DNA of 39,249 nt. Origin: a virus (lineage: Duplodnaviria > Heunggongvirae > Uroviricota > Caudoviricetes). The position numbers and the translations under genes are program-made. The notes below the pieces were generated by a model. That model had not been told where the DNA came from. It did no database searches and was given only the letters and a program-made list of their open reading frames with translations. The stretch spans positions 1 through 39,249 of IMG/VR virus record IMGVR_UViG_2861079508_000003. The stretch is one strand, 5' to 3'. Below, in pieces: positions 8,126 to 31,263 of the stretch. Each line of letters begins with the position of its first letter. Position 1 is the first letter of the stretch.

Positions 8126-8341
8126 ATGAGCAACCTACGAAAATATCGAGAGTCACTGAATATCTCTCAAACAACACTTGCTAAGGCAGTTGGATGCACA
8201 CAGGGAGCTATCGGACATTGGGAATCTGGTCGTCGCTTCCCAGACCTTAAAACATGCCGTGCTCTTGTTGCGTGCCTAAACAAGTTAGGCGCAAAAGTCA
8301 GTCTTGATGACGTGTTCCCGCCGGAACACAAAGCCGCTTAA
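8126..8341 (+). CDS. cro: Cro-like HTH regulator (71 aa from ATG at 8126)
   Basis: Short XRE-type HTH protein (..LNISQTTLAKAVGCTQGAIGHWESG..) divergent from the repressor, with RBS; the track's longer form has an implausible N-terminal extension. Confidence 0.8.
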   Translation: MSNLRKYRESLNISQTTLAKAVGCTQGAIGHWESGRRFPDLKTCRALVACLNKLGAKVSLDDVFPPEHKAA

Positions 8342-8352
8342 TAAGCGGATCC

Positions 8353-8386
8353 GCTCTTTATCAATCTGCACCGCCGACAACGCGGT
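8353..8386 (+). promoter_or_regulatory. nutR (boxA CGCTCTTTA plus boxB-like hairpin with GACAA loop)
   Basis: boxA-like sequence just downstream of cro followed by ACCGC-CGACAAC-GCGGT; same loop motif as nutL. Confidence 0.55.
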
Positions 8387-8450
8387 AACTAATTAATCGC
8401 TCATCGAAAGATGAGTATTAGTGATTATTTACCTATGGAAATAGTAAGAA

Positions 8451-8747
8451 ATGGAACAAACAAGTTACAGCAAACTATCACAGCGCGACGTTGATCGCGC
8501 AGAAACAGATTTACTCATCAACCTGTCAACGCTTACCCAGCGCGGTCTGGCAAAGATGATTGGCTGTCATGAATCGAAGATAAGCAGAACGGACTGGAGA
8601 TTTATTGCTTCGGTCTTGTGTGCTTTTGGAATGGCATCAGACATCAGTCCGATTAGCAGGGCTTTTAAGTATGCGCTTGATGGACTCACCAATAAAAAAC
8701 GCCCGGCGGATATTTTCGCTGAGAATCAGTTAACCATGAATTTTTAA
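8451..8747 (+). CDS. cII: CII-like transcriptional activator (98 aa)
   Basis: ..CHESKISRTDWRFI.. and ..GLTNKKRPA.. parallel lambda CII (..DKSQISRWKRDWI.., ..ILTNKKRPA..); position after cro/nutR. Confidence 0.8.
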   Translation: MEQTSYSKLSQRDVDRAETDLLINLSTLTQRGLAKMIGCHESKISRTDWRFIASVLCAFGMASDISPISRAFKYALDGLTNKKRPADIFAENQLTMNF

Positions 8748-8757
8748 GGATGGTCTT

Positions 8758-9186
8758 ATGACTCCGTGTTTGGAATTTGGCGGTTTAAAGGACAGCAAGG
8801 GTTATGGAAGGGTTTGGATTAATGGGAAAAAAGTATTTGCTCATAGATTTGCTTATTGTGTGGCAAAAGGGATCCAGCTTGAAGATATAGATGGCTTAGT
8901 AATTCGTCACGCATGTGACAATCCTTCTTGTATTTTACCTTCTCATTTATGTGCTGGGACAAGTCAGCAAAACGCAAATGACATGGTGGAGAGAAAAAGG
9001 CAGGCATTTGGAAGCAGGAATGGTAGGGCAAAATTAACTGAAGATGATGTAAGAAACATCATTAGTGAATATATACCAAGACACCCCTTATTCAACACAA
9101 GGGCATTATCAAAAAAATATGGAGTAACGCCAAATTATATAGCTGCTATTTGCAGAGGTGAAAAATGGAAGCACATAAAAAAATAA
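8758..9186 (+). CDS. HNH homing-endonuclease-like protein (HNH_3-type core plus C-terminal HTH; 142 aa)
   Basis: ..SKGYGRVWINGKKVFAHRFAY..VIRHACDNPSCILPSHLCAGTSQQNANDM.. fits the HNH_3 pattern; inserted between cII and the replication genes. Confidence 0.7.
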   Translation: MTPCLEFGGLKDSKGYGRVWINGKKVFAHRFAYCVAKGIQLEDIDGLVIRHACDNPSCILPSHLCAGTSQQNANDMVERKRQAFGSRNGRAKLTEDDVRNIISEYIPRHPLFNTRALSKKYGVTPNYIAAICRGEKWKHIKK

Positions 9187-9261
9187 AACGCCCGGTGTGC
9201 AAGACCGAGCGTTCTGATCAAATACAAATGGAATTTTAACAACATCCAACGAGATAATTAT

Positions 9262-9534
9262 ATGCGAAACAAAGGCTTTAATCCACCTGATACACACAAA
9301 GAAGTTAAGCGTTTGCGCTTCCTTCGTTCCATTGATGAAAGAACTCAAATCTCTTTTGTGAAAGTTGCCAGAACTGAGCTTCTGAAGGCTGAGGCAAGGG
9401 CGTTGCTCCCGTCTCTACCAAAAGAGGAGGGATATACGTTCATTCCAAACGCATTTCTGGAAAAGCTTCTCAAAGAAGACATATCCGTAAGTCAGTTTAA
9501 CGATGTTCTTAAGGTCTTTCGTCAAGGCAGGTAG
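9262..9534 (+). CDS. Hypothetical protein (90 aa)
   Basis: ORF directly upstream of the replication initiator; no family recognised. Confidence 0.45.
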   Translation: MRNKGFNPPDTHKEVKRLRFLRSIDERTQISFVKVARTELLKAEARALLPSLPKEEGYTFIPNAFLEKLLKEDISVSQFNDVLKVFRQGR

Positions 9535-9536
9535 TT

Positions 9537-10484
9537 ATGAGCAATACAGCAAAAATCTACGATTTCAGCGCCGCACACGAGCGCAGGAGCAACAGGATGG
9601 AGAACCAGAAAACTGGTTACATTCCGTTGTACCGGAGCATTCTGAAACAGTCATGGGCGAAAGATGTTTATCTTCGCACCCTGTGGGAAAACCTTCTCCT
9701 GAATGCCGCCAGAAAGCCATACAAAGCGAATTTCAAAGGTCATGAATGGCATCTGCAACCCGGTCAACTGGTTGTGACAGCAGCTGATTTAGGTCTTCAG
9801 TTATGCGACAGGCATGGCAAGCCGGCAAGCCGTGATCAGGTTGAGCGGATGCTTCAGGTTTTTGTGAAAGAGGGGATGATCTCCATTGATGGAGAGAAGC
9901 AAAAAGGTCGTGTGATCACCATCACAAATTACCATGAATACGCTCAAAAAATGGACAATTCACCCGCACATGAAGCCGCACAAACAACCGCACATGATGC
10001 CGCACATGATGAAACCAGTAATGGCGCGGCATTCAGCGCACATGCCGCACATGAAAGCGCACATGAAGCCGCACAAACAACCGCACATCATGAACAAGAA
10101 GGTATTAACAAGAATATAAATAATACCCCCCTACCCCCCAATGGGGGAGGCGATGGGCAGGTTAAACCTGAACGTCGCAAGGCAGAACGAATCGACTATG
10201 AATCCTTCCTGAACGCCTACAACACCGAAGTCGGTGACAGACTGCCACACGCTGTTGCGGTCAACGAGAAACGCAAACGCCGCCTGAAGAAAATCATCCC
10301 GCAACTGAAAACGCCAAACGTGGACGGTTTCAGAGCGTATGTCAGGGCGTTTGTACATCAGGCCAAGCCGTTTTACTTCGGAGACAACGACACGGGCTGG
10401 ACAGCTGATTTTGATTACCTGTTGAGGGAAGATTCGTTAACTGGAGTACGGGAAGGGAAGTTTGCAGACAGGGGGATTGCATGA
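9537..10484 (+). CDS. O: Replication initiation protein (lambda O / P22 gene 18 type; 315 aa)
   Basis: N-terminus [10 protein letters not shown].. parallels lambda O (MTNTAKILNF..); contains an internal iteron array and AT-rich block as in lambdoid ori; followed by a coupled helicase gene. Confidence 0.75.
9964..10092. repeat. Replication-origin iterons: about 9 copies of a 12-bp unit (CCGCACATGAAG and variants), then AT-rich block and GC-rich palindrome (about 10093-10150)
   Basis: Tandem 12-bp periodicity visible in the DNA, encoding the [10 protein letters not shown].. repeats; iterons, AT-rich stretch and palindrome are the lambdoid ori arrangement. Confidence 0.6.
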
Positions 10485-11857
10485 GACAGGATATCGAAGC
10501 GAGCGTTATCGGTGGCCTGCTGATTGGTGGATTAACACCAACTGCCAGTGACGTTCTGGCAACGCTGGAGCCGGAAGCGTTTTCAATTCCGCTCTACCGG
10601 AAAGCCTTCGAGGTTATCCGCAAGCAGGCGAGAAACAGAAACCTAATCGATGCGCTGATGGTTGCCGAGGCGTGCGGAGAGGAGCATTTCACGTCAATCC
10701 TGATGACCAGCAAAAACTGCCCGAGTGCCGCAAACCTGAAGGGATATGCCGGAATGGTCGCGGATAACTATCACCGTCGTCTGGTGCTGGAAATCATGGA
10801 TGAAATGCGTGAACCAATTCAGAGCGGAACTATCGACGCATCGAGTCAGGCGATGGATGAACTTGTAAAGCGTCTTTCAGCCATCAGAAAGCCCCGTGAC
10901 GAGGTAAAACCTGTACGGTTAGGGGAAATCATTACTGACTACACTGACACGCTTGACAGGCGTCTGAGGAACGGAGAAGAGTCAGATACCCTGAAGACCG
11001 GAATCGAAGAACTTGACGCCATCACCGGAGGGATGAACGCAGAAGACCTGGTGATAATCGCTGCTCGTCCTGGTATGGGGAAAACCGAACTGGCTCTGAA
11101 GATTGCCGAAGGCGTTGCAAGCCGCGTTATTCCTGGTTCTGACGTCCGGCGCGGGGTATTGATTTTCTCGATGGAAATGAGCGCATTGCAGATTGCAGAG
11201 CGAAGCATTGCCAACGCCGGGAGGATGTCGGTTAGCGTACTGCGAAATCCTGCATCGATGGATGACGAGGGCTGGGCACGTGTTGCTAACGGCATGAGTC
11301 AGCTTGCAGATTTGGATGTATGGGTAGTCGATGCTTCGCGGTTATCGGTCGAAGAAATACGCTCAATCGCAGAACGGCATAAGCAGGAAAATCCAAACCT
11401 GTCACTCATCATGGTGGATTATCTTGGCCTGATTGAGAAGCCGAAAGCAGATCGCAACGACCTCGCAATTGCTCACATCTCCGGAAGCCTGAAGGCGATG
11501 GCGAAAGACCTGAAAACACCGGTTATCTCCCTGAGTCAGCTTTCGCGCGATGTTGAGAAGCGACCAAACAAACGCCCGACAAACGCAGATTTGCGTGATT
11601 CAGGAAGCATTGAACAGGACGCAGACTCAATCATCATGCTCTATCGGGAAGCGGTATATGACGAGAACAGTAGCGCCGCGCCATTTGCTGAAATCATCGT
11701 GACGAAAAACCGTTTTGGCTCACTTGGTACGGTTTACCAGCGGTTCTGCAACGGACACTTTGTTGCATGTGACCAGGATGAAGCCAGACAGATTTGCACA
11801 GCATCAAATGCACCTGCTGCGCGTGGCAGACGATATGCACAAGGGGCGGACGTATGA
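10481..11857 (+). CDS. Replicative DNA helicase, DnaB family (P22 gene 12 type; 458 aa)
   Basis: N-terminal DnaB domain and C-terminal RecA-like domain with Walker A ([12 protein letters not shown]) and DnaB motifs (..[10 protein letters not shown].., ..[12 protein letters not shown]..); start overlaps the O stop. Confidence 0.9.
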
Positions 11858-16807: not shown

Positions 16808-16882
16808 GGGTCAGTCGTATAAAGGTCATTACGGAAGGCTGTTAACCTTCTTATCGTGGTTCGAGTCCACGCTGTCCCGCCA
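16808..16882 (+). tRNA. tRNA-Asn (anticodon GTT), putative
   Basis: Hand-folded cloverleaf: 7-bp acceptor stem (one U-U mismatch), D-arm with GG, anticodon loop CTGTTAA, T-arm CGTGG-TTCGAGT-CCACG, discriminator G and encoded CCA. Confidence 0.5.
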
Positions 16883-16887
16883 AATAT

Positions 16888-16963
16888 GCTGGTTTAGCTC
16901 CAATGGTAGAGCAGTCGCCTTGTAAGCGAATGGGTAGCGGTTCAAGTCCGTTAACCAGCACCA
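16888..16963 (+). tRNA. tRNA-Thr (anticodon TGT), putative
   Basis: Hand-folded cloverleaf: acceptor GCTGGTT/AACCAGC, D-stem GCTC/GAGC, anticodon loop CTTGTAA, T-arm AGCGG-TTCAAGT-CCGTT, discriminator A and encoded CCA; 76 nt. Confidence 0.6.
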
Positions 16964-25771: not shown

Positions 25772-26032
25772 ATGACACACATGATCTTTCGTCATGGCGA
25801 CATGAAGAAATGGAAAGGCGTTGGATACGACTTTGAAATCGTGAAAGCCGAAGAGCTTCAGGAATATCTGGATGCTGGCTGGTTTGCACATCCTGATGAT
25901 CTTCTGAAGGATGTTGCAGAGACAGAGCCAGAGCCAGAACCAGAGCCAGAGCCAGAGCCAGAAGAAAAACAGCGTAAAAAGCCTGGTAGAAAACCTAAGG
26001 CGGCAGCAGATGAACCTGACAACGAAGGGTGA
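25772..26032 (+). CDS. Hypothetical protein with (Glu-Pro)n linker and basic C-terminal tail (86 aa)
   Basis: ATG with GGAG RBS just after the coat terminator; contains [13 protein letters not shown] encoded by a hexanucleotide tandem repeat, then KKPGRKPK; overlaps the gp4 start. Confidence 0.45.
25925..25960 (+). repeat. Tandem hexanucleotide repeat (GAGCCA)x6 with one GAACCA variant
   Basis: Directly visible; in frame within the 25772..26032 ORF, encoding the EP repeats. Confidence 0.9.
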
Positions 26033-30570: not shown

Positions 30571-31263
30571 ATGTTATATGCATTTAAGCTGGGCAGAAAA
30601 CTGCGCGGCGAGGAACCTTATTGCCCTGAAAAAGGCGGGAAAGGTGGCAGTTCTGATAAAAGCGCAAAGTATGCCGCAGAAGCTCAGAAGTATGCCGCAG
30701 ACCTGCAAAATCAGCAGTGGCAGACGATCATGAAAAACCTTGCTCCGTTCACGCCGCTTGCGGAGCAGTATGTTAACCAGCTTCAGAATCTTTCCAGTTT
30801 AGAAGGACAGGGGCAGGCACTTAATCAGTATTACAACTCTCAGCAGTATAAAGACCTTGCAGGTCAGGCTCGCTACCAGAATCTTGCTGCTGCGGAGGCG
30901 ACGGGGGGACTTGGTTCGACAGCCACAAGCAATCAACTGGCTACGATCGCGCCGACTCTCGGTCAGTCTTGGTTATCAAACCAGATGAGCAATTACAACA
31001 ATCTGGCAAACGTTGGGCTTGGTGCTCTGCAAGGTCAGGCAAACGCCGGGCAGACGTACGCCAACAACATGAGCAGCATTGCACAGCAAAGCGCAGCACT
31101 TGCCGCTGCTAATGCCAATAAACCATCAAGTCTTCAGACTGCAATTAGCGGTGGCACGTCTGGTGCGATTGCCGGTGCAGGTCTTGCCAGCCTTTTGGGA
31201 ACATCAACGCCTTGGGGCGCTGGCATTGGTGCTGGTATCGGATTGCTTGGCTCGTTGTTTTAA
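30571..31263 (+). CDS. Ejection (injection) protein, P22 gp7 type (230 aa)
   Basis: N-terminus MLYAFKLGRKLRGEE..KGGKGGSS.. resembles recalled P22 gp7; size and synteny. Confidence 0.7.
   Translation: MLYAFKLGRKLRGEEPYCPEKGGKGGSSDKSAKYAAEAQKYAADLQNQQWQTIMKNLAPFTPLAEQYVNQLQNLSSLEGQGQALNQYYNSQQYKDLAGQARYQNLAAAEATGGLGSTATSNQLATIAPTLGQSWLSNQMSNYNNLANVGLGALQGQANAGQTYANNMSSIAQQSAALAAANANKPSSLQTAISGGTSGAIAGAGLASLLGTSTPWGAGIGAGIGLLGSLF

Follow-up and report, generated by a model that had tools for sequence, protein, structure and literature searches.

The textbook plan of a lambdoid replication origin, now decades old, is that of a site within gene O that consists of initiator-specific iterons and of halves that can be exchanged. 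In lambda, an O-some forms on the iterons, the AT-rich block opens, and the C-terminal domain of the initiator recruits the helicase (PMC7466680). The repeats in gene O of lambda and in gene 18 of P22 and phage L have been described as iterons or likely origins (PMC8022706), and P22 gene 18 carries an annotated rep_origin feature that was assigned by similarity to lambda. Gene 18 of phage L contains six imprecise 11-bp repeats, TGTCCAACGGA, which were proposed to form an origin of distinct specificity (PMC8022706). For the lambda-type origins of the Stx phages 933W and P27, which have six iterons in gene O, binding of O was demonstrated by footprinting (PMC7466680).

We compared these systems with the initiator region of a P22-like (Lederbergvirus) coliphage, using the whole stretch of 39,249 nucleotides of IMG/VR record IMGVR_UViG_2861079508_000003 (referred to as the window). 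A literature search that included papers on HK620, CUS-3 and Eru (the HK620 genome paper being outside its reach) yielded no description of the origin proposed below. The Eru papers, which classify Stx-phage replication regions, contain no mention of repeats or origins, and a literal search of the literature for the repeat unit retrieved unrelated primers only. Likewise, a rep_origin feature is absent from the feature tables of all four relatives consulted (CUS-3, Gally, Mulock and the Yersinia phage vB_YenM_210.17).

The initiator gene and its helicase partner

The O-like replication initiator gene of the window, which contains the candidate origin, was identified from the ORF list and Pfam at positions 9537–10484 (+ strand) and encodes a protein of 315 aa. 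Residues 20–132 of this protein match the Phage_rep_O family (PF04492; E = 3.4e-15) with a score of 56.8 bits against a cut-off of 28.7, and the match covers positions 1–95 of the 95 positions in the profile. The O genes of CUS-3, Gally, HF4s, JEP4 and many Stx2a phages share 98% identity with this gene. On its 5′ side lie a cII homologue, an HNH endonuclease gene and a 90-aa ORF, while on its 3′ side it is followed by a gene for a DnaB-type replicative helicase of 458 aa (10481–11857, + strand; Pfam DnaB_C, E = 8.7e-79; DnaB N-terminal domain, E = 4.5e-13), the presumed partner of the initiator. The start of the helicase gene (10481) overlaps the stop codon of the initiator gene (10484), and in P22 (gene 18 followed by the gene 12 helicase) and HK97 (gp54/gp55) a DnaB-type helicase gene likewise follows the initiator gene and overlaps its stop codon. 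In lambda, by contrast, the partner is a P-type loader.

The two halves of the initiator differ in their affinities. Its C-terminal domain (aa 190–315; 10104–10484, + strand), presumed by homology to recruit the helicase, is of the P22/HK97 type, with 97% identity to HK97 gp54 and 60% identity to P22 gp18 (aa 190–312). The window thus has the combination that characterises a P22-type module, i.e., a gp18-like C-terminal domain with a DnaB-type helicase gene directly 3′ of it. Over its whole length, however, the initiator shares just 34% identity with P22 gp18, nearly all of it in the C-terminal half, and the N-terminal domains align poorly. Compared with lambda O, the protein shows marginal similarity (BLASTP, E = 0.004 across 65 aa).

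Two clusters of 12-bp units lie in the middle of the gene

The preliminary description of this DNA, made from its sequence alone, had reported about nine tandem copies of a 12-bp unit within the initiator gene. Tandem Repeats Finder indeed returned two arrays of period 12, the first at 9964–10009 (3.8 copies of CCGCACATGAAG) and the second at 10045–10088 (3.7 copies). By direct reading, nine copies of the unit could be recognised, eight of which stand in 12-nt phase within 9964–10092, each consisting of an 8-bp core (SCGCRCAT) and a 4-bp A-rich variable part. These eight are arranged as two clusters of four, namely cluster A at 9964–10011 (+ strand; unit starts at 9964, 9976, 9988 and 10000) and cluster B at 10045–10092 (+ strand; unit starts at 10045, 10057, 10069 and 10081). 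In cluster A, the core positions are almost invariant among 52 haplotypes of close relatives, and in cluster B the last unit, CCGCACATCATG, which runs into the AT-rich block described below, is kept throughout the iteron class of the window.

Between the clusters lies a 33-bp spacer (10012–10044, + strand; AGTAATGGCGCGGC), which encodes the peptide SNGAA and holds the ninth copy. The latter, GCGCACATG at 10036–10044, is out of phase, standing 9 nt ahead of the next unit, and is polymorphic. Because it reads GCGTACATG in most of the near-identical relatives, it is probably dispensable, so that the earlier count of nine stands as a reading of the sequence and conservation is limited to the eight units in phase. 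The jump of 45 nt between the clusters is identical in 30/30 full-length loci with the unit class of the window, and direct reading revealed the same jump in L008 and L007, two loci with other unit types. Across the types checked, the 33-bp spacer is kept regardless of the unit.

The units are a local property of this region. Counting both strands, the 39-kb window contains six exact copies of the 8-mer CGCACATG, all of them within 9965–10065, and we estimate that random sequence would contain about one. An internal duplication of roughly 90 bp, claimed earlier, could be placed at 9964–9999 and 10057–10092 (34/36 matches at an offset of 93 bp).

No inverted repeat was found within any unit or between adjacent units. 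All units have the same orientation, and the only inverted matches are those between a unit junction and the spacer. A GCGGCAT motif in the spacer had been considered as an inverted iteron, but this candidate was dropped, as the spacer is kept in relatives with wholly different units.

As had been proposed, the array is read in frame as part of the O-like protein, in which it spans aa 143–185 of 315 and encodes a repetitive peptide at the junction of the N- and C-terminal domains. In another frame, the repeats also create a His/Pro/Met-rich ORF of 61 aa (9934–10119, + strand), which lies outside the origin system. Since this frame is interrupted by stop codons in many relatives, the ORF was ruled out as a gene and is a by-product of the repeats, in agreement with the preliminary description, which had called it spurious.

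An AT-rich block and a palindrome adjoin the array

Cluster B is directly followed by an AT-rich and purine-rich block (10093–10125, + strand), a predicted unwinding element that contains two copies of AACAAGAA. With about 80% A+T, this block holds the least stable 30-mer of the initiator gene (z = 3.2 relative to the window), and when the distinct sites of the window are ranked by instability it comes fourth, behind three other sites. The AT-rich stretch had previously been drawn as far as 10133; although it is present, its truly AT-rich part ends at 10125, and 10093–10133 as a whole reaches 71% owing to a C-run. Within the block, GAACAAGAA is kept in relatives of all unit types.

Directly after the AT block comes an element of the form CCCCCC-TA-CCCCCC-AAT-GGGGG (10126–10147, + strand). 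It includes the palindrome CCCCCA-A-TGGGGG, which we confirmed at 10135–10147 (arms at 10135–10140 and 10142–10147, with 1 nt between them). The AT blocks of P22, HK97, Citrobacter phage Omnitron and Pasteurella phage Pmp10 are likewise succeeded by an element of the CCCCC-N-GGGGG type, and the initiator gene of a Stenotrophomonas phage also contains one with GGGGG. The palindrome region at the same time encodes a conserved peptide, TPLPPxGG. In four loci (L007, L035, L039 and L043), roughly 150–200 nt past the ITITNY motif, CCCCC-N-GGGGG adjoins the AT block even though the C-terminal continuation of the protein differs, being TPQGEK, PPMGDK or SPEGD by translation and SPKGE in L043, a frame-shifted gene that was read by eye. 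Because the element is kept where the encoded continuation differs, these loci hint at a DNA-level role that is independent of the peptide.

By analogy with the lambdoid plan, the repeats, the AT block and the palindrome together very probably constitute a phage replication origin embedded in the initiator gene. We infer the function of this particular origin from lambda and P22, on which binding, unwinding, helicase loading and origin activity are modelled here. Another reading is that the repeats are initiator sites that serve mainly for control, through autoregulation of the O/helicase operon, titration or handcuffing, and that replication starts elsewhere. Iteron arrays in plasmids and lambda can indeed titrate or handcuff initiators (PMC3349717), and three other sites in the window are less stable than this AT block. 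Nevertheless, the array runs straight into the family-wide conserved AT block and the palindrome of P22/HK97 origins, the layout matches ori-lambda position by position, and no second array of these units exists anywhere in the window, which makes a mainly regulatory role improbable.

Substitution patterns in the unit cores

An alternative view takes the array to be no more than an Ala/His-rich protein linker of low complexity that slippage produced and that has no function as DNA. The in-frame array does encode a repetitive and presumably flexible linker between two domains. We examined how its codons vary among relatives of the N-terminal domain. These comprised 36 prophage loci from bacterial genomes (47–88% identity), with host genera ranging from Escherichia to Xenorhabdus and Sodalis, together with 80 near-identical viral contigs and several phage records. 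Unit statistics were taken from 191 units in 31 loci of the window's unit type, the N-domains of which extend down to 59% identity (pairwise range from 30 loci).

The profile of these 191 units reads n-[C/G]-C-G-C-[A/G]-C-A-T with a tail of four variable, A-rich bases, and is translated in the frame [nSC][GCR][CAT][nnn]. In 191/191 units, the codon that precedes the core ends in a wobble C, while its first base is free, so that the residue may be P, A, T, S or G. Alanine codons within the array were GCA or GCG without exception (178/178), compared with 57% of Ala codons ending in C or T outside the array, and histidine was encoded by CAT in 166/168 cases, compared with 58% outside. As a control, in conserved four-fold codons of the N-domain of the same loci the frequency of the major wobble base averaged 0.54 and in no codon reached 0.97.

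The same pattern emerged at short evolutionary distance. Among 64 near-identical relatives (52 haplotypes), the length of the array is constant, and diversity amounts to 0–0.005 at core positions 4–7, compared with 0.03–0.12 at unit positions 9–12 and 0.06 in the spacer. Synonymous positions in the core are thus fixed, whereas the residues differ, and diversity is lowest in the core. Selection therefore acts on the unit cores as DNA, with the peptide as a by-product. A mere linker is further contradicted by the contrast within the very same codons, in which core bases are the least diverse and variable bases the most diverse, and by the other unit types, which encode unrelated peptides (SPDEPCDKPSD and VEGSDEPPVE) while keeping the 12-nt period and the geometry. 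We thus regard the slippage explanation as hardly credible, and continue to read the array as the iterons of an origin.

Some copies of the gene were incomplete. In L011 (Xenorhabdus ehlersii; locus ~2190–2330), the initiator gene ends prematurely after 174 aa, just past cluster A and the spacer, and looks like a decayed prophage copy. Moreover, the protein homology search, which served as the alignment for structure prediction, returned mostly partial proteins. Since the database proteins of the initiator family (P0001–P0072) are mostly short (79–250 aa), with many labelled ‘partial’ and many originating from short contigs, assemblies or gene calls seem often to break at or near the repeat array.

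The unit sequence varies with the N-terminal winged-helix domain

The N-terminal domain of the initiator (9537–9950, + strand) is the predicted reader of the iterons. An AlphaFold2 model of aa 1–142 (mean pLDDT 73.8, with values of 81–91 over aa 71–130) consists of H1, a beta hairpin and strand, H2 (aa 82–88), the recognition helix H3 (aa 99–112) and a beta-hairpin wing (aa 115–129), corresponding to a winged-helix fold. Helix 2 of this model begins with A82, and D100 occupies the second position of the recognition helix. A Foldseek search with the model recovered generic winged-helix regulators only, as weak matches (E of 6e-3 or higher), and a sequence search of the PDB with the initiator gave no match.

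N-domains at about 50% identity to that of the window carry four other 12-bp unit types (CCGATGAACCAT, GAGGTAACAAAS, CCGRTACACC and GTCGAAGGTAGT) in an unchanged geometry. In L008 and L007, for example, direct reading revealed three units, the 45-nt jump, three further units and the AT block. Comparison of the iterons among relatives, as had been suggested in the preliminary description, thereby distinguished five unit types (six when the A/G split described below is counted), and these track the clades of the N-domain. The associated claim that the iterons imply an initiator specificity of their own is borne out to the extent that the repeat sequence covaries with the N-terminal domain across some 40 relatives.

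A finer correspondence was found within the unit class of the window, where core position 5 is A in 21 loci and G in 9 (30 loci). The state of this position is uniform across all units in 28/30 loci, L005 and L027 each having a single exception, and is perfectly associated with the substitutions A82S and D100H across the 30 loci. A tree of codons 76–132 places the G-class loci in about two clades, and split trees indicate that the winged-helix segment and the units were inherited together. Our first reading of the G class as several independent origins was dropped after these split trees: with about two clades, the A/G events are few. Part of the association between winged helix and iterons could consequently be due to physical linkage.

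An especially informative pair is formed by L005 and L022, two Yersinia elements whose differences are concentrated in the winged helix and the repeats. Specifically, these loci are 97–100% identical over codons 11–70 and mostly 90–100% identical from codon 181 to the end, but only 63–83% identical over codons 71–120 (winged helix) and 67–80% identical over codons 141–180 (array). This looks like a natural cassette swap in which the reader and its sites were replaced together.

These data also bear on whether another factor, be it a host or a phage protein, binds the repeats instead of the surrounding initiator. Such a factor might have its site in the spacer, given that this is conserved regardless of unit type. 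The units themselves, however, change with the winged helix, both in the association of two residues with one base and in the cassette swap, and the host genera extend from Escherichia to Xenorhabdus and Sodalis. The genes upstream and downstream, moreover, vary among relatives that keep the same units (such as Mulock and the Yersinia phage vB_YenM_210.17), so that the N-domain alone accompanies the units throughout. Taken together, these comparisons support the view that the unit sequence follows the N-terminal winged-helix domain of the initiator, and binding by another factor is accordingly very unlikely.

During this comparison, L008 (OR850084.1; 2692 bp) was found to be labelled ‘Staphylococcus phage SA 1298 Kay’ (UNVERIFIED_ORG). 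It nevertheless carries an initiator of the enterobacterial type, the same origin geometry with unit CCGATGAACCAT, and a C-terminal domain as in the window. Its organism label is probably wrong.

The right half of the probable origin is exchanged separately

Along the initiator gene, identity to HK97 gp54 rises from about 0.4 to 0.9 or more at approximately 10107–10137, and identity to Klebsiella phage Mulock drops there, placing a mosaic junction at about 10125–10137. Mulock and the Yersinia phage vB_YenM_210.17 have the units of the window, but combine these with a lambda palindrome and a lambda-P-type downstream partner. In these two phages and in many prophages with the units of the window, the sequence at this position reads TTCGTC(C/A)GAGAATTCT(G/A)(A/G)CGAATCC, i.e., the palindrome of lambda. 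Judging from these sequences, the origin is modular, in that the N-domain is accompanied by the iterons and by an AT block of the GAACAAGAA type, and the palindrome mostly accompanies the C-domain and the helicase-delivery system.

Comparison with described origins and proposed mechanism

The preliminary description had attributed the architecture of ori-lambda to this region. The order of elements does match lambda and P22, but the units are without dyad symmetry and the right half is of the P22/HK97 rather than the lambda type. As in lambda, the site lies in the middle of an initiator gene of the Phage_rep_O family, where the DNA-binding domain adjoins the partner-binding domain, and iterons are followed by an AT-rich and purine-rich block and then a palindrome. 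In common with origins of the lambda/P22 type, it is intragenic and has at least four iterons, an AT block, a palindrome and covariation with the N-domain. Nevertheless, whereas lambda, as read from NC_001416, has four iterons of about 19 bp with dyad symmetry, the window has eight 12-bp head-to-tail units without it, in two clusters separated by the 33-bp spacer. Dyads of about 19 bp are also found as iterons in P22, Pmp10 and Omnitron, and iterons of this form are lacking in the array of the window.

With P22 and HK97, the window shares the right half, an AT block that is followed by ACCCCC-TTA-CCCCC-N-GGGGG in these phages. However, their N-terminal domains and iterons are unrelated in sequence to those of the window, P22 having four repeats of about 20 bp around TCGGTAAA and HK97 having repeats of the AGCTAA type, so that the window does not share the origin specificity of P22. 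The AT block differs as well, being of the GAACAAGAA type of its own N-domain family in the window and of the ACAAAAGACA type in P22, HK97 and lambda.

Phage L, compared here by description, resembles the window in being P22-like and in having short (11–12 bp) direct repeats in an O-like gene, and its origin was proposed by the same reasoning. Its repeat sequence and initiator are different, and a bipartite geometry is not described for it (PMC8022706). The iterons of 933W and P27 are of lambda sequence and belong to an O/P system, unlike those of the window, whose module is also found in many Stx2a phages.

In its layout of an 8-bp core and a 4-bp A-rich part, the unit presumably resembles the tandem direct-repeat sites of winged helices of the OmpR/PhoB type. 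This analogy suggests that one N-domain may occupy each unit in a one-directional array, and because the units are without dyad symmetry, the picture of one O dimer per iteron in lambda is not simply transferable. Along the lines of lambda and P22, the N-terminal winged-helix domain would bind the eight 12-bp units in their two clusters of four, and the resulting nucleoprotein complex would destabilise the adjacent AT-rich block (10093–10125). The C-terminal domain of the P22/HK97 type would then bring the phage DnaB-type helicase onto the opened DNA, with the CCCCC-N-GGGGG element marking the right edge of the origin. Direct support from the sequence comparisons extends to the anatomy, to selection on the core DNA, to the covariation of unit and winged helix and to the modular exchange of the left and right halves.

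A bolder proposal is that the locus represents a distinct sub-architecture of O-type origins, in which a one-directional array of winged helices on 12-bp head-to-tail units takes the place of dimers on dyads. Such a class would be defined by a fixed geometry of n × 12, 33 and n × 12 bp shared by five or more specificity classes among Enterobacterales prophages, by a rule linking D100H with the A-to-G change at core position 5, and by natural swaps of winged helix and iterons as a cassette. We put this forward tentatively and consider it rather less probable than its opposite. If true, it would provide a simple and readable recognition rule, in which D100 changes to H when core position 5 changes from A to G.

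As a kind of element, the origin is ordinary, and it confirms the long-established modular picture of lambdoid origins. It has a recognition sequence of its own, and its variant features are the short units without dyad symmetry and the fixed bipartite geometry. A likely origin can now be placed for a widespread replication module, which is found in the P22-like coliphages CUS-3, Gally, HF4s and JEP4 and also in at least 48 records of Stx2a-converting phages. In practical terms, this provides a defined target for work on replication compatibility and plasmid derivatives of these phages. For research on DNA reading by O-type proteins, the relatives form a compact natural series comprising at least five unit types, one clean cassette swap, and a switch between A and G that is linked to two residues.

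Other features of the window

An Rfam scan of the origin region gave no match, and a promoter and terminator scan of 8300–10600 revealed no enrichment and nothing usable for the origin. Further upstream, the HNH endonuclease ORF between cII and the 90-aa ORF (8758–9186, + strand; 142 aa; Pfam HNH_3) looks like an inserted gene of the homing-endonuclease type, because the closest relatives match just 57% of 8440–9540, as two pieces. Between the HNH gene and the 90-aa ORF lies a strong terminator-like hairpin on the minus strand (9215–9185; 12-bp stem and T-run), which by analogy with lambda and P22 could belong to an oop-like antisense RNA. Elsewhere in the window, tandem repeats were found at 25917–25962 (CAGAGC × 7.7, with 92% matches) and 30660–30701 (two copies of a 21-bp unit), and Rfam identified two adjoining tRNA genes at 16808–16879 and 16888–16960 (+ strand).
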